From IMG/VR virus record IMGVR_UViG_3300025127_000012: 64,000 nucleotides of DNA. The stretch is one strand, 5' to 3'. This stretch comes from a virus. The notes beneath the pieces were generated by a model. The model was not told where the DNA came from, made no database searches, and saw only the letters and a list, made by a program, of their open reading frames with translations. Made by a program: the position numbers and the translations under genes. Of this stretch, positions 3,377-10,583 are shown piece by piece (positions within the stretch are counted from its first letter, which is position 1; every line of letters begins with the position of its first letter).

Positions 3377-3876
3377 TAGATCATAGACATTGCGTGGTGT
3401 AATTCGTGTGCGTGTTTTAGTTCGTCTTCTGCTATCTCTGCTATCTTCTGATCTTCTGGATGATATGCCAAATATTTTATATACGTCTCGAATGCATGCT
3501 TCTCTATCTTCATATTAATATCATAAGCAGCAAGAGGATTAATAAGATAGTACCCAACCATGATCCAATAATATACAAGAACAAGGTGCTTTGCAAAAAA
3601 CCTGTCAATCCAGTGTTCATCACCACCGCGCTTTTCCATTTCTTCAAGATGCTCTGTCTCATTTAGTGCCTGATAAAAGTGTTCCTTCATTAAGTATATG
3701 TGTTCTGGTCCTCTAAGTCCTAACGACTCACGGAAGTGTAGAACAGATATAAAAGAGAAGTAGGGTGCTCTCGCAATAACTTCTAATACCCAGAATCTTT
3801 GGAAGTCTCTACCTCTGTAAAGAAAATCCAAGATGTAGATTGTGGTGTCTAGTACCCAAGTGTTAAATTGTTTCAT
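3376..3876 (-). CDS. ptox: Plastoquinol (plastid) terminal oxidase
   Basis: RFWVLEVIARAPYFSF, NETEHL, IEKHAFETY and DELKH give the di-iron E/ExxH/E/ExxH ligands of the AOX/PTOX family. ATG at 3876 preferred over TTG at 3882. Confidence 0.95.
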   Translation of the reverse strand: MKQFNTWVLDTTIYILDFLYRGRDFQRFWVLEVIARAPYFSFISVLHFRESLGLRGPEHIYLMKEHFYQALNETEHLEEMEKRGGDEHWIDRFFAKHLVLVYYWIMVGYYLINPLAAYDINMKIEKHAFETYIKYLAYHPEDQKIAEIAEDELKHAHELHHAMSMI

Positions 3877-3959
3877 ACCCAAGCATAACGTGAAAATAAA
3901 AGAGCAAGACTAACTGTTCCAAACAAAATACATGATGACCTGATTGGTAAATCTTTCAT
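3873..3959 (-). CDS. 28-aa single-TM micro-protein coupled to PTOX; not in the ORF track
   Basis: MKDLPIRSSCILFGTVSLALLFSRYAWV; its TGA overlaps the PTOX ATG (ATGA). Confidence 0.65.
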   Translation of the reverse strand: MKDLPIRSSCILFGTVSLALLFSRYAWV

Positions 3960-3974
3960 TTAACTTTATTAAAC

Positions 3975-3993
3975 TACCTATATTATATAGGTA
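3975..3993. promoter_or_regulatory. Perfect 8-bp inverted repeat centred on a minus-strand TATAAT, upstream of the micro-ORF/ptox unit
   Basis: tacctata-tta-tataggta; minus strand reads TACCTATATAATATAGGTA, ending 16 nt before ATG 3959. Confidence 0.45.
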
Positions 3994-4000
3994 ATTTTAC

Positions 4001-4366
4001 TTATCCGTGGTTCTGTAACTTCTCTAATTGTGTTGATGCCGACATACTAGGTACGTCATATAAACCATTTGCATCAAACCATGGTGCGGTTTCCCAGTCA
4101 AACCCTTCTCCAAATGTATTATCTGCCTGCTGTACATACCAATGACATTTTGCATCAGGTATATCTACTGCACAAACTGCCCAGTCATCTGTCCATTGTG
4201 GAACCTGTACATACAATACTGGTACATCAGCATATGCAATCTGTGTCATACCTAACATAAAGGCAAGTACGACTGACCATGTAAAAATTCTAGGGATGTG
4301 TCTAACCGACGGAGGGTGACCTTTTCCTCGGTACACCTCCATCACATCGTGATAAGAGTAATTCAT
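4001..4366 (-). CDS. Hypothetical exported protein (signal peptide, Trp/Asp-rich mature part, Cys pair)
   Basis: Basic stretch, hydrophobic IFTWSVVLAFMLGMT, then an AYA-D cleavage motif. Mature part VPQWTDDWAVCAVDIPDAKCHWY. Confidence 0.75.
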   Translation of the reverse strand: MNYSYHDVMEVYRGKGHPPSVRHIPRIFTWSVVLAFMLGMTQIAYADVPVLYVQVPQWTDDWAVCAVDIPDAKCHWYVQQADNTFGEGFDWETAPWFDANGLYDVPSMSASTQLEKLQNHG

Positions 4367-4367
4367 A

Positions 4368-4733
4368 TTAGCAGTTCCACGCTCGTAGTGATTTATTTAT
4401 ACGAGAGTCAGGGTCACGAGCAGTTTTTGCTGATGTAAGTTTTCGTTTCATGCCTTTCATTCTAGCACAAAAACTTGCTCTACGCTTATTACCTTTCTTC
4501 TTGCTTGGTGCTTTTAAGTCAGAACCAGGATTCTCACGTTCGTAAGACTTTCTCCCTTTCTCATTTAAACCACCTTCTTTATTCTGTCCTTCCTTCTTTG
4601 TCCATGCTGCTTCCTTCATCATCTTCTTTTCCTCACAAGTTTTCTCAACACACATCTGACACTTCGGGCAATACTTTTTACCGTCAGGGCAGTTAGATGC
4701 TTCTTGTAGATACTCGTTGAAGGTTAAGATCAT
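4368..4733 (-). CDS. Putative head-internal protein with capsid-targeting-like N-terminus (DUF6321-like C-domain)
   Basis: MILTFNEYLQE resembles the T4 CTS MKTYQEFIAE. Cys-rich peptide, second site MKE/A, then basic AAWTKKEG...GGLNEKGR...RRASFCARM...RINKSLRAWNC. Confidence 0.75.
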   Translation of the reverse strand: MILTFNEYLQEASNCPDGKKYCPKCQMCVEKTCEEKKMMKEAAWTKKEGQNKEGGLNEKGRKSYERENPGSDLKAPSKKKGNKRRASFCARMKGMKRKLTSAKTARDPDSRINKSLRAWNC

Positions 4734-4855
4734 GATCTCTTAGCACAATTCAGTTCGTGTTTTTCCATCCAAGTTCTTGGACGTGCGTGACCTAACGGTG
4801 CAGTTAGTCCACAGTATTGGCATTCATAAACGCCATTGTCATTTCTTTTTGCCAT
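4730..4855 (-). CDS. 41-aa C2HC zinc-finger micro-protein; not in the ORF track
   Basis: MAKRNDNGVYECQYCGLTAPLGHARPRTWMEKHELNCAKRS (C-x2-C-x17-H-x3-C). Stop overlaps the next ATG (ATGA); start overlaps the end of the 684-aa ORF. Confidence 0.75.
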   Translation of the reverse strand: MAKRNDNGVYECQYCGLTAPLGHARPRTWMEKHELNCAKRS

Positions 4856-6893
4856 AGTGATAAGTTGAGTTAGGTTTAGTTTTCTTAGGTAGTTTACCGC
4901 CCCTTACTTTGGTTGCGGATGTTTCACCTTCACCAGAGGGGTTCTTACCTTTCTTTACTTCTTTGCCGAGGTTGTATGACTTGCCAGGTTTCTTAGATTC
5001 AGTGTCATGTAATCTAGCGGGTTTCCCTGCCTTCTTAGTAATCACTGATTCCTGTCCATGCTTACGTCCTAAACGACGTGTAAGTTTTCCAAACTTACGC
5101 TTAGACATTCCCTTGCCAGGACTTGTTTGGTAGGATACTTCTCTACCAGTAGATCCATCATCATACTTGTAACTACCGACTGATTTTTTATAACCAATCC
5201 CTTTCTTTTTAAGATCCTTTTCGAGACTCTTACGACTCTCTCGGTTCTTTTTTTCGTCTGTACCTCTGTCTGCTGCAATACTACCAGTAGTCTGGTTCTT
5301 TGCTTTTGACATCATACGAGCACGATCATTTCCTTCTTTAAGGAAATCAGAGAATGACATTACATCCTCTTTCTGCAACTTTTTCTTTTGCCATGAGTCA
5401 AGTGCTTGGTCAGGACGTTTGCCCTTTGCCATTTCACTCTTCTTATGTGCTTGGAACTTAGCAGCAGAATCTGCTTTCGCTTTCTTATCAGCAGCATTTT
5501 TTGCTGCTTGTTTCGCGACGTTCGCTTTTGCCTTATCCTGTACTGCTTGCAGTTTGGGATTAAGTGCCTCACCCATTATAGCATCCTTTCCGTATTTTTG
5601 TCTAATGTTCGCTTTTACCTTGTCTAATGCATTGCCAGGACGCTTCCATGTGTTGCCTTGACCAGGTGTAGCAACGCTTTTCTTTGCTAATGGTTTGATT
5701 TTACCATCGTCTCTTAGACGATCATATCCTTCTTCTTTTACAACCTTCTTATATTTTGATAGGGTTTTCACACCACGCTTCTCTTTGTGTGCTTTGTGTC
5801 TCTTATCCATTGACACAAGTCTCTCAGCAGGATCAGCAGCATTACCACCCTCACCTGTGTGTCTTACGTTTCTAATAGATGCCTTACCATAGTTAGAACG
5901 ACCACGCTCCTGACTTAATCTCTGGTTGTCACTATCCTTTTGTCTTTCATCTAATACTTCTACTTCTTCCTTTGTTATCTTATCAGTTGCTTTTAATATA
6001 CCAGAATGTCTTTTTGTTACCTTATCTTTGTCACCTTTTACAGCACCTATTGCCATGTCTGTGGATGCTTTCTTAACGTAAGAACCCATTGTCTTCTTAC
6101 TTAACTCATCTAACTGATCTAATGCTTTACTTGACCAATATACTTCTGTGTCTTCTGATCTGTTTAAACTCTTACGATTAGAATGATGACTTGGATCATC
6201 AAATGCAGGGTTACCTGTCTTTCTTGCAACTGGTTTCTTCTTTGTATCTGGTTTTGCTTTCTTTACAAATCCTGCAAACTGCATCTTAGGTTTACCATCA
6301 CCTTTGTAGAGACCGTATGATGTACCTTCATGTGTAAATTTCATACCCTTAGTTGCTTTGTCTTTAAGTGCTTCACGTTTTTTAGGATCCATGTTCTTTT
6401 CGTAATCTGCTAATTTAGCAGCAAACTTTTTGTTATCCATTTTCTTGATAACTTTTCTGTCTGCTTTGTTAGGTCCTGTATATGAGGTGCTCCCAGTAAC
6501 AGCACCACCGCCTGCTGCTGTACCTATTGCTGCCTCTTCGACACCTTGCATTTTACCTCTCCTGTTAGTTTGAGCGACACCTTGTGGTAGACCTGTATTA
6601 CCTGTGCCGATTTTGTCGTTCTTCTTACGAAGTCTTTTTAGTTTAGCAAAGGTGTTCATAAACTCTGCTGATGATCTAAAATCAGAATTACCTACATGCT
6701 CTACTGATTCTTTTTTCACTTTCTTTTCTGGTAATCCTTTATGTTTAGTTGATGCAAACTTCTTTGCATCTTTCATTTTTATGCTGGAAGCAACTCTGGC
6801 AACCTCAGATGAGGGAGCTTGCGTCGAATTCCCTTTTTGAAACGCTCTAACCATCCCGAAGAACCTTTGTTGTTTCTTTGAGACTGCGGGCAT
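4839..6893 (-). CDS. Basic head-internal polyprotein: DUF3008-like N-terminus, multiple Glu-terminated linkers, C-terminal SAM-lyase-like domain
   Basis: Lys-rich 50-80 aa blocks separated by hydrophobic-x-E linkers; internal CTS-like MSFSDFLKE; C-terminal AADRG..N..R..L..G..GSY..E.S..LG.K.GQESVI. Confidence 0.7.
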   Translation of the reverse strand: MPAVSKKQQRFFGMVRAFQKGNSTQAPSSEVARVASSIKMKDAKKFASTKHKGLPEKKVKKESVEHVGNSDFRSSAEFMNTFAKLKRLRKKNDKIGTGNTGLPQGVAQTNRRGKMQGVEEAAIGTAAGGGAVTGSTSYTGPNKADRKVIKKMDNKKFAAKLADYEKNMDPKKREALKDKATKGMKFTHEGTSYGLYKGDGKPKMQFAGFVKKAKPDTKKKPVARKTGNPAFDDPSHHSNRKSLNRSEDTEVYWSSKALDQLDELSKKTMGSYVKKASTDMAIGAVKGDKDKVTKRHSGILKATDKITKEEVEVLDERQKDSDNQRLSQERGRSNYGKASIRNVRHTGEGGNAADPAERLVSMDKRHKAHKEKRGVKTLSKYKKVVKEEGYDRLRDDGKIKPLAKKSVATPGQGNTWKRPGNALDKVKANIRQKYGKDAIMGEALNPKLQAVQDKAKANVAKQAAKNAADKKAKADSAAKFQAHKKSEMAKGKRPDQALDSWQKKKLQKEDVMSFSDFLKEGNDRARMMSKAKNQTTGSIAADRGTDEKKNRESRKSLEKDLKKKGIGYKKSVGSYKYDDGSTGREVSYQTSPGKGMSKRKFGKLTRRLGRKHGQESVITKKAGKPARLHDTESKKPGKSYNLGKEVKKGKNPSGEGETSATKVRGGKLPKKTKPNSTYHYGKKK

Positions 6894-7433
6894 TTATCCT
6901 CCGACAATTTGAACTTGCTCGACAACAACTGCGTTAGAACCAGCGACAAGTTTTGCAACTCGTTGTATGACTGGCACAGTTCCTGCTGTTGCATCTGCTG
7001 CACTAAGAGTGTATGCAGATCCTGCTCCTGATGCGTCATAGTCTGTTGTAATAGTAGAACCAGTGACTGCGGTAACTTTCTTTCCAGATGCTGCTGCGGA
7101 TTCAAAGTCAGATGTAAATCCATCTGTGTCTCCACCATCAATAGTCTGGACAAAATCACCAACACTGAATGTATGGCGACCACCACCTGAGAAACCTTCT
7201 GCTGTTACTACCATAGTAGCAGCGTTGGTTGCAGCAGCGATCTTTGCGGTTTTAACTTTACCACAGGAAACTAACAATGCTTCTCCTGCTGCCAAAGTTA
7301 TAGCGGGACCACCGTCTATCGCTAACGTTGACGCGGATGCTGCATAGCATCTAAGCACACCACTTTTTACCACGATATAGCTTGTGCCACTTCCTGATAC
7401 TGTTTGGGTGTCAATTACATTTAATACTGACAT
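6894..7433 (-). CDS. Probable virion structural protein (Ala/Gly/Thr-rich beta protein)
   Basis: Composition typical of cyanophage structural proteins; AGGAG RBS at 7446-7450; directly behind a late promoter. Confidence 0.6.
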   Translation of the reverse strand: MSVLNVIDTQTVSGSGTSYIVVKSGVLRCYAASASTLAIDGGPAITLAAGEALLVSCGKVKTAKIAAATNAATMVVTAEGFSGGGRHTFSVGDFVQTIDGGDTDGFTSDFESAAASGKKVTAVTGSTITTDYDASGAGSAYTLSAADATAGTVPVIQRVAKLVAGSNAVVVEQVQIVGG

Positions 7434-7456: not shown

Positions 7457-7906
7457 TTATTTATCCTTTTCTTGCTTTAAGAATTTTGCAAGATCAGCAG
7501 TGCTACCAACGAACATGGTATTGTTAGTGACTTCTGTTTGTTTTCCTTTGCCTGGATTTTCTATTTCATTGACCTTCTTTTGTAGATCAACTAACTTGTC
7601 TGCCACGTCACCAACATGCTTTATGAGTTGTCCTGCAACTTCATATGCTCTTGGTTGATCAGACTCCTGTGCAAGTTCTAAAATACCATCTACTGCTTCT
7701 TGTCCTTTATCAATTAGTGTGTACAAGTTGCCTCTGGTATACTCATAATCTTTTTTAAGTTGTTGTTTATCTGATATATCTGCACTAGGTTCCACCTTCT
7801 TAATAGAAGTGTCTGTCTGCATAATTTCAGTCTTGACATCGAGGGCATCCTCGATACCAGCAAACTTACTCGTCTGCTCCTGTGGTTGGGTTTCTTGATT
7901 TTCCAT
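7457..7906 (-). CDS. gp16: Terminase small subunit
   Basis: KDYEYTRGNLY, ESDQPRAYEVAGQLIK, NNTMFVGSTADL; follows gp15. Start set at ATG 7906 rather than 7948. Confidence 0.95.
   Translation of the reverse strand: MENQETQPQEQTSKFAGIEDALDVKTEIMQTDTSIKKVEPSADISDKQQLKKDYEYTRGNLYTLIDKGQEAVDGILELAQESDQPRAYEVAGQLIKHVGDVADKLVDLQKKVNEIENPGKGKQTEVTNNTMFVGSTADLAKFLKQEKDK
7458..7465 (-). promoter_or_regulatory. T4-type late promoter (GATAAATA) heading the gp16-gp17 island
   Basis: 7/8 match to TATAAATA, overlapping the gp16 stop and upstream of the RBS of the 179-aa gene. Confidence 0.7.
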
Positions 7907-9782: not shown

Positions 9783-10583
9783 TCATCCTATCATGTCTAA
9801 TGGAGGAGTTTCCCATGTGGTGCGAAGTTGCTCATCAAGGATCTTTAATTCCTCAACAGCATCATTATAAATCATCTCTCCGTTAAGAGTGATACCACCT
9901 GGCATTTGAACGCTAGTAAATTTAGTAAGGTTTGATCCCCACTGTTTCTTTATCTTTGCAGTAGCATAGTCCTTTAACCACATCTGATTATATATCTCAG
10001 TCCATGTGTCAGGTTGTAATGCTCTCCAACATTTTATAACAATATACTGATCTTCTAGTGCATCTTGTGACCAGTCAAAATCTAAGTAAACTTTATCTTG
10101 TACTGCTTGATATCTTACTGGGTGCATACCTTCTAGTATGAAATCAATAGTCTCTAAGTGTTGTTGTATCATATAGTAATGATAGAACTGTGTAGATGTA
10201 AAATCATACAAGTCATTCAAACGCATTTGATATCTAATATCAAACATGTTTCTAGTACCTTTGTCTGTAAATTTAAAGATACCTTCAATAGATGTTATAT
10301 GTTCTGGTACAGGAACAAATGCATTCTGTTCTGACCATTCAGTAGTACCATCTGTTGCTAATGATGTTGAGTTTGCTTTACCAGCATCAATTTCTGCCTG
10401 TGTAAATTTATGTTTTAGATAAACACGTTCAGCACCTTCATAGTGATACTGTTGAAATTTCTGTATAGCATAATCCAAGTTATCATCAACCTGATCATCA
10501 GACACGTTGATTTCTAATACTGGTTTACCGAGTCTACGGAGACAGTATTCTTTTAATTCTGCTTTTGAGGTTGGGGATGCCAT
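9783..10583 (-). CDS. gp13: Neck protein
   Basis: ELKEYCLRRLGKPVLEINV, WLKDYATAKIKKQWGSNLTKF, MPGGITLNG. Confidence 0.96.
   Translation of the reverse strand: MASPTSKAELKEYCLRRLGKPVLEINVSDDQVDDNLDYAIQKFQQYHYEGAERVYLKHKFTQAEIDAGKANSTSLATDGTTEWSEQNAFVPVPEHITSIEGIFKFTDKGTRNMFDIRYQMRLNDLYDFTSTQFYHYYMIQQHLETIDFILEGMHPVRYQAVQDKVYLDFDWSQDALEDQYIVIKCWRALQPDTWTEIYNQMWLKDYATAKIKKQWGSNLTKFTSVQMPGGITLNGEMIYNDAVEELKILDEQLRTTWETPPLDMIG

Follow-up and report, generated by a model that had tools for sequence, protein, structure and literature searches.

A T3-type SAM-lyase domain behind a capsid-targeting-like leader in a late basic precursor of a T4-like cyanophage, probably carried in the virion

A 684-amino-acid open reading frame (ORF) on the minus strand of the viral DNA IMGVR_UViG_3300025127_000012 raises the question whether an enzyme that destroys S-adenosylmethionine (SAM) can be stored in a phage head and injected together with the genome. 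In T3-like podoviruses, SAM lyases are known to be expressed early and to counter host defences. The window, i.e. the whole stretch of 64,000 nucleotides that was analysed, gave DNA and protein matches exclusively to Prochlorococcus and Synechococcus myoviruses and is, by these matches, part of a T4-like cyanomyovirus. An earlier reading of this DNA from its letters alone (the sequence-only reading) had proposed that the ORF ends in a SAM-lyase-like domain behind a capsid-targeting-like peptide, and that this lyase is made late, packaged, matured and injected. The analysis presented here places residues 521-684 in the SAM-lyase family, with all known substrate-binding residues kept. As judged from the sequence, the domain is very probably active as a SAM lyase, and the virion probably carries it and injects it together with the genome.

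When residues 512-684 were searched alone, they matched the Pfam family PF23780 (S-AdoMet_lyase) with an E value of 1.3e-5. The same family was matched by 22 of the 23 close homologues, and distant homologues, collected by an exhaustive search of 1.8 billion representatives, scored 33 to 71 bits. A profile of 84 family members searched against the whole Protein Data Bank (PDB; E up to 10) recovered only T3 SAM lyase (E 3.7e-5) and Svi3-3 (E 0.007), while single-sequence and close-homologue profile searches of the PDB returned only spurious low-complexity matches (G-alpha, Rbg2). Both the Pfam match and the profile search bear out, well beyond chance, the assignment made in the sequence-only reading, and every residue on which it had drawn is where it had been placed: M512-SFSDFLKE520, GSIAADRG at 537-544, N550, G573-S-Y575, E585-V-S587 and LGRKHGQ614E615SVI at 608-618. 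Clustered at 90% identity, the family comprises 279 clusters, and it occurs in 31 records of isolates or single-virus genomes; on this count it is widespread in T4-like cyanophages of Prochlorococcus and Synechococcus. All 31 records are annotated "hypothetical protein"; only the more distant gp6 of S-CREM2 is annotated as a SAM hydrolase.

The fold predicted for the domain points to the same family. An AlphaFold2 model built from the 84-sequence alignment reached a pLDDT of 81 and a pTM of 0.77; it supersedes an earlier run on the 23 close homologues, in which the core alone was confident and Foldseek matched generic ferredoxin folds. The top four Foldseek matches of the 84-sequence model were all SAM lyases, with Svi3-3 first (E 5.5e-4). 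Alignment with VIA-align gave Z scores of 12.8 to 7OCK_A (rmsd 3.0 Å, 136 of 151 residues) and 12.5 to 8BB1_E, both T3 SAM lyase, as against 7.6 and 7.2 for Svi3-3 and at most 6.5 for every other chain, generic ferredoxin folds included. The SAM-lyase fold that the sequence-only reading had anticipated, a ferredoxin-like alpha-beta sandwich with additional strands at the C-terminal end, is therefore present in the model, where it is nearer to that of T3 SAMase than to that of Svi3-3 (6ZM9, 6ZNB, 6ZMG), itself a trimer with an N-terminal strand swap. Because of this difference (12.8 versus 7.6), a trimer is not to be assumed for the cyanophage domain.

In the alignments of 39 and 84 sequences, only G573, E585 and Q614 are invariant. 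Among SAMases of shown activity, only Gly56, Glu69 and Gln104 (Svi3-3 numbering) are strictly conserved, and the Svi3-3 site is completed by Tyr58, Glu105, Ser71 and Ser106 (PMC7877911). The seven residues Gly56/Tyr58/Glu69/Ser71/Gln104/Glu105/Ser106 align with G573/Y575/E585/S587/Q614/E615/S616, so that the Tyr, Glu and Gln-Glu positions singled out earlier are indeed in register. S587 is nearly invariant and the position of Y575 is aromatic throughout the family. These columns also bear on the idea that the protein is a packaged internal head protein without catalysis, its fold having been recruited for DNA condensing or ejection like T4 IPII and IPIII. The domain is extremely basic (29% Lys+Arg, pI 10.4) and its Pfam score lies under the cut-off, as such a role would allow. 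We nevertheless consider this very improbable: the only invariant columns in 84 diverse relatives are three ligand-binding residues, the active-site Tyr, Glu and Ser are kept as well, and conservation of this kind is expected of an enzyme, not of a scaffold.

With T3 SAM lyase (gp0.3; 7OCK, 8BB1) the domain has the fold in common over almost the whole chain, and the SAxR, G-x-Y, E-x-[ST] and Q-[ED]-x-V-[IL] blocks occur in both in the same order, although identity is only 12-14%. T3 SAMase is a stand-alone podovirus protein of 152 amino acids that is made first after infection and is not packaged; the domain described here, by contrast, ends a basic precursor of 684 amino acids encoded in a late operon of a T4-like myovirus and is preceded by a T4-type leader. 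The T3 enzyme counters type I restriction and BREX and also blocks the SAM synthetase MetK, the two activities being separable (PMC12707154). A domain that mainly hits another target, either by binding and blocking the host SAM synthetase or by cleaving a SAM-derived signal such as SAM-AMP, would agree with the best structural matches, which are chains of T3 SAM lyase from complexes with MetK, and with the fact that SAM-AMP lyases share the fold (9GAB, Foldseek rank 21). Such a function is judged improbable. The match to the SAM-AMP lyase is weak (E 0.06), and type III CRISPR is rare in marine picocyanobacteria, which counts against the SAM-AMP variant.

The second element on which the question turns is the peptide directly preceding the domain. 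The T4 capsid-targeting sequence (CTS) is MKTYQEFIAE; targeting needs its positions 4 and 7 and processing needs positions 8 and 10 (PMC9026906). F514, F517, L518 and E520 correspond to Y4, F7, I8 and E10 of T4, with one residue fewer after the Met. The aromatic, Phe, hydrophobic and Glu positions all agree, which upholds the view that the peptide is CTS-like. The resemblance is closer elsewhere in the family, since stand-alone relatives begin with MKTY.EFI.. or MKTF.EF..E, and the isolate orthologue S-SZBM1_194 has ITYREFIAE|GN at the same place. E520 is conserved in at least 90% of the sequences in the family alignments. As the part of the model that aligns with T3 SAMase begins at model residue 14-18, the leader lies outside this region and is an addition to the enzyme fold. 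A strict DNA pattern, M-K-[TS]-[FY]-x-[DE]-F, was also tried on five cyanophage genomes, in which it matched only the SAM-lyase gene of P-TIM68 and was abandoned; to judge by these sequences, the cyanophage leader is looser than that of T4, and scans at the protein level are needed.

Such a scan was made over two complete cyanophage genomes, the window and two metagenomic contigs. The leader expression matched 9 of 951 ORF N-termini as against 1 of 2226 internal Met positions, and this sole internal match is M512; the leader is thus strongly enriched at N-termini, more than chance would give. The N-terminal matches include a cytidylyltransferase (T4-GC 190), an ART-PolyVal-like protein, a 763-aa protein, a cytidylyltransferase-like protein, P-SSM4_158 and the gene directly downstream of the ORF (Table 1); a 196-aa protein also has the leader. 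In all three leader-bearing enzymes, the leader precedes the Pfam domain. The 120 cyanophage homologues of the cytidylyltransferase (P0247-P0366) start with MKKFSAFLxEA, in which x alone varies, which is what a protease site of the type [LI]-x-E predicts. This sequence looks like a conserved leader for targeting and cleavage, and virions of S-SM1 (PMC3037559), S-SZBM1 (PMC9146016) and S-CREM2 (PMC10665884) have been found to contain the cytidylyltransferase. The enzyme, encoded in P-SSM4 at L026:4193-5344, belongs to the cyanophage core.

On the two metagenomic contigs, L029 and L031, the ART-PolyVal-like, 763-aa and cytidylyltransferase-like proteins with leaders adjoin SAM-lyase genes, and both loci look like the variable internal-protein loci of T-even phages. 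L029 is T4-like, since it encodes UvsY. Its ART-PolyVal-like protein of 160 aa, a 61-aa protein, the 763-aa protein and the SAM lyase (3413-6912, 10001-10567) all begin with the leader, and on L031 (1175-3894) the leader is present on the cytidylyltransferase-like protein and on two small proteins.

Direct virion data are available for a relative of the domain. S-CREM2 gp6, listed as "S-adenosyl-L-methionine hydrolase (virion protein)", was detected with 19 peptides by mass spectrometry in CsCl-purified virions in 2023, and its entry into the cell along with the DNA was suggested by the authors (PMC10665884). It is 37% identical to the domain over the length of the latter (E 7e-12) and has a leader-like N-terminus. 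The homologous domain is N-terminal in gp6 and is followed by a 250-aa tail, and the gene lies in an early-type region of this T4-like cyanophage; neither a targeting sequence nor processing by a protease is mentioned for gp6 in the S-CREM2 paper (PMC10665884). In the literature searched, the S-CREM2 study is the only one that links a myovirus SAM lyase to virions. No cyanophage study in this literature names a capsid-targeting sequence, the sole paper with both terms being a review of T4 head assembly (PMC9026906). In S-CREM2 (L004:2947-5245), the SAM-lyase gene is the second gene downstream of a DNA adenine methylase gene, separated from it by a single 48-aa gene, and is near a gene for an EcoRI-like endonuclease; a SAM-destroying enzyme is thus encoded near a SAM-using one.

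The architecture of the ORF suggests how an internal leader could come to act. Residues 1-60 form a DUF3008-like module with the SKKQQRFFGMVRA motif, which matched Pfam DUF3008 only weakly (E 0.006, below the cut-off). No Pfam family was matched by residues 61-511, a mosaic of short modules that recur in varied order in relatives of 400-760 aa, with the lyase domain always last; the long homologues P0122-P0143 each carry a different set of them. Recurring modules are EGYD..RD, GTSYGLYKG, YTGPDKKDR, RQKDSDNQR and NADKKGNTP. The long form is not an assembly artefact, because S-SZBM1_194, with 707 aa, has the same N-terminal leader, C-terminal domain and architecture. The [LIFM]-x-E|G of the leader is kept in all long forms, and the EGYD module follows [LVMF]-x-E in all 12 cases, although the contexts vary.

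The sequence-only reading had allowed for an optional internal start at ATG 5360. The AGAGGA and the ATG are there as described, with four nucleotides between them, but the Met is not conserved in other long forms, which have K, V, L or I at this place; an internal start is therefore not the general route, and the AGAGGA-ATG is at most a local option. Among the short homologues, P-SSM2_114 and P0113 for instance begin at the leader. Short forms occur in P-SSM4 and P-SSM2, long forms in S-SZBM1, P-RSM6 and P-TIM40. In the product of the 684-aa ORF, the leader would become N-terminal only through use of ATG 5360. From these comparisons, release of the domain from the basic precursor by a prohead protease is more likely than an internal start. 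A near-consensus sigma-70-like promoter at 5604-5575, a possible driver of a short early form, was considered and rejected as chance: the window holds 2 sigma-70-like matches of at least 11 out of 12 as against 2.6 in shuffled sequence, and the -10 box of the candidate consists of codons for AIMGE.

Late synthesis is indicated by the position of the gene. On the minus strand, the order is YadA-type structural protein, gp13, gp14, gp15, the small terminase gp16 and DUF7243, and the 684-aa ORF closes the chain that runs from gp13. It is translationally coupled to the DUF7243 gene through a TAA-ATG junction, and its start is real because of this junction and the GGAGGA upstream of it. The DUF7243 gene is itself preceded by GATAAATA. 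All 12 copies of ATAAATA in the window (1-64000) are on the coding (minus) strand, many of them shortly before gene starts, with those 5-60 nt before ORF starts being located at 7458, 17459, 26952, 30357, 55745, 60581 and 4394. The copies near ORF starts are probable late promoters of the T4 type, and both strand bias and positions fit T4-type late transcription. By this gene order and promoter-like sequence the ORF is in a late-type operon, in agreement with the earlier claim that the lyase is made late.

Several observations weigh against packaging and injection of an active lyase. The leader is internal in the 684-aa ORF and in all long forms, and the T4 CTS has been shown to work only at the N-terminus. 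The ORF holds seven [LIVMF]-x-E sites, not above the number in shuffled sequences (5.9 ± 2.1), so that only the junction-specific conservation speaks for processing. The PF23780 score of the domain, 25.6 bits, is just under the gathering cut-off of 28 bits. The interval between gp16 and gp17 is a known hypervariable island that also houses non-structural cargo (PTOX, pcyA). S-SZBM1_194, the closest long-form orthologue for which a virion proteome exists, is missing from the 30 proteins detected in S-SZBM1 virions, whereas the cytidylyltransferase is listed there; since some 30 tryptic peptides of S-SZBM1_194 should be observable (six if the domain alone is retained), the result has to be taken as negative, though only weakly so in view of the shallow proteome. 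Finally, the authors of the S-CREM2 study caution that abundant non-virion proteins may co-purify (PMC10665884). As a whole, the earlier interpretation is upheld in part: the domain is a true SAM-lyase relative with a CTS-like leader, is encoded in a late-type operon and has a homologue in virions, whereas its packaging and injection stay predictions, S-SZBM1_194 being missing from the virion proteome, and the internal leader of the 684-aa precursor fits protease release better than an internal start.

The foremost alternative is an active SAM lyase that is not packaged and works only in the producing cell. Depletion of cytoplasmic SAM could stop host methylation, shield DNA under replication or steer methionine and polyamine metabolism elsewhere, and the leader would be a structural or regulatory element. 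T3 SAMase acts in this way, as an expressed and unpackaged enzyme (PMC12707154). The absence of S-SZBM1_194 from the virion proteome, the location of the gene in the hypervariable island beside PTOX and pcyA and the internal leader of the long forms would all be accommodated. We consider this rather unlikely, though a serious contender, since it leaves four observations aside: the same type of leader is present on unrelated enzymes found in virions, the S-CREM2 homologue was found in virions, the leader lies outside the fold shared with T3 SAMase, and a SAM lyase made late would be too late for the protection of incoming DNA.

On balance, we lean towards the explanation that the 684-aa ORF encodes a late basic precursor, the C-terminal 164 residues of which are a catalytically competent T3-type SAM lyase that is loaded into the head, freed by a protease and injected with the DNA. 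Entry of the precursor into the prohead core would be mediated by the CTS-like peptide, alone or together with the basic N-terminal region. A gp21-type prohead protease would then cut after E520 (L-K-E|G) and probably also at other [LVMF]-x-E junctions. The freed basic enzyme would remain with the DNA and be ejected into the cell, where, ahead of all phage gene expression, it would cleave SAM into methylthioadenosine and homoserine lactone, blunting SAM-dependent defences (type I and type III restriction, BREX) as well as host methylation. By a rough estimate, about 100 µM SAM in a cell of 0.1 fL would amount to some 6000 molecules, which a few tens of active sites working at the Svi3-3 rate of 9.5 per second could clear within a minute.

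Precedents for parts of this scheme are known. T4 IPI* and the Dar proteins of phage P1 are packaged anti-restriction factors (PMC12707154). The T4 internal proteins and Alt, which bear a CTS, are processed by gp21 and are injected, resemble the system described here in their leader, with its aromatic, Phe, hydrophobic and terminal Glu residues, and in having basic bodies, variable genes and different cargoes under one leader; IPI* inhibits GmrSD and offers an anti-restriction precedent for an injected protein. The T4 CTS is N-terminal, whereas the predicted leader in the long precursor is internal, and IPI* is a stoichiometric inhibitor, whereas the cargo predicted here would destroy a cofactor enzymatically. 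As parts of the head, the P1 Dar proteins shield incoming DNA from type I restriction and BREX. They are unrelated in sequence and act in cis on the packaged DNA, while a SAM lyase would act in trans on a metabolite.

If the favoured explanation is true, the SAM lyase would wait ready-made in the capsid, act from the moment of injection (time zero) and leave no interval in which restriction or BREX could attack unprotected DNA. Among the T4-type internal proteins, it would be the first cargo to deplete a metabolite by enzyme action. That a virion may carry a SAM hydrolase was proposed for S-CREM2 as early as 2023; the present analysis adds the logic of targeting and processing and the architecture of the precursor. 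The leader together with its L-x-E site may serve as a sequence rule by which virion cargo of T4-like marine phages can be predicted, a rule that would also explain why the cytidylyltransferase recurs in virion proteomes.

A more general scheme can be put forward tentatively, as possible rather than probable. T4-like marine phages may run a payload system based on long, basic and modular precursors, each built from a head module of the DUF3008 type, short modules in shuffled order and an enzyme at the end (SAM lyase or DUF6321, for example). Once inside the prohead, these would be cleaved by the prohead protease at [LVMF]-x-E junctions, and the resulting cocktail would reach the cell with the DNA. 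The SAM lyase would be one interchangeable warhead, acting before phage transcription, and the same leader would load stand-alone enzymes (cytidylyltransferase, ART). DUF3008 may be a second leader for cargo proteins. In phrog_10538, the DUF3008-like leader of the 684-aa ORF is fused to a DUF6321 domain, i.e. the modules are recombined in other phages. Viral protein clusters in which the DUF3008 head module is paired with DUF6321, NT5C or Zeta-toxin domains were also noted, as Atlas leads only and with low scores.

Table 1. Positions in the window of the 684-aa ORF, its parts and the adjoining features
Feature	Position	Strand	Remarks
Whole ORF, 684 aa + stop, very basic (19% Lys, pI 10.2)	4839..6893	-	
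Residues 1-60, DUF3008-like N-terminal module	6714..6893	-	phrog_28725, phrog_30268, phrog_10538, E 1e-19 to 1e-22
Residues 61-511, Lys-rich mosaic of short modules, low-confidence, probably disordered	5361..6713	-	Modules shuffled among homologues
AGAGGA, Shine-Dalgarno-like	5365..5370	-	4 nt before ATG 5360; possible internal start
Residues 512-520 (MSFSDFLKE), T4 CTS-like leader, L-x-E protease-type end	5334..5360	-	Predicted cut E520|G521
Residues 521-684, SAM-lyase domain (T3 gp0.3 type), basic C-terminal beta-strand region	4842..5333	-	
G573-S-Y575	5169..5177	-	Svi3-3 Gly56-Val-Tyr58 (ribose packing; cation-pi with sulfonium; PMC7877911)
E585-V-S587	5133..5141	-	Svi3-3 Glu69-x-Ser71 (SAM amino group and ribose binding; PMC7877911)
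Q614-E615-S616	5046..5054	-	Svi3-3 Gln104-Glu105-Ser106; QESVI string identical in both (PMC7877911)
Upstream gene, DUF7243 (T4-GC 403)	6894..7433	-	Stop abuts start of 684-aa ORF (GGAGGA-TAA-ATG)
GATAAATA, T4 late-promoter-like	7458..7465	-	24 nt before ATG of the DUF7243 gene
Downstream 121-aa gene, second leader MILTFNEYLQE|A, DUF6321 at its end (82 bits)	4368..4733	-	

After the 684-aa ORF, the minus-strand order continues with the DUF6321 gene, an esterase-like gene, PTOX, an SNase-like nuclease, pcyA and the large terminase gp17. The product of the 121-aa DUF6321 gene also contains a Cys-rich stretch. On the other side of the ORF, the orthologues of the DUF7243 protein in P-SSM4 and P-RSM4 are described in their records as similar to an S-SM1 protein.

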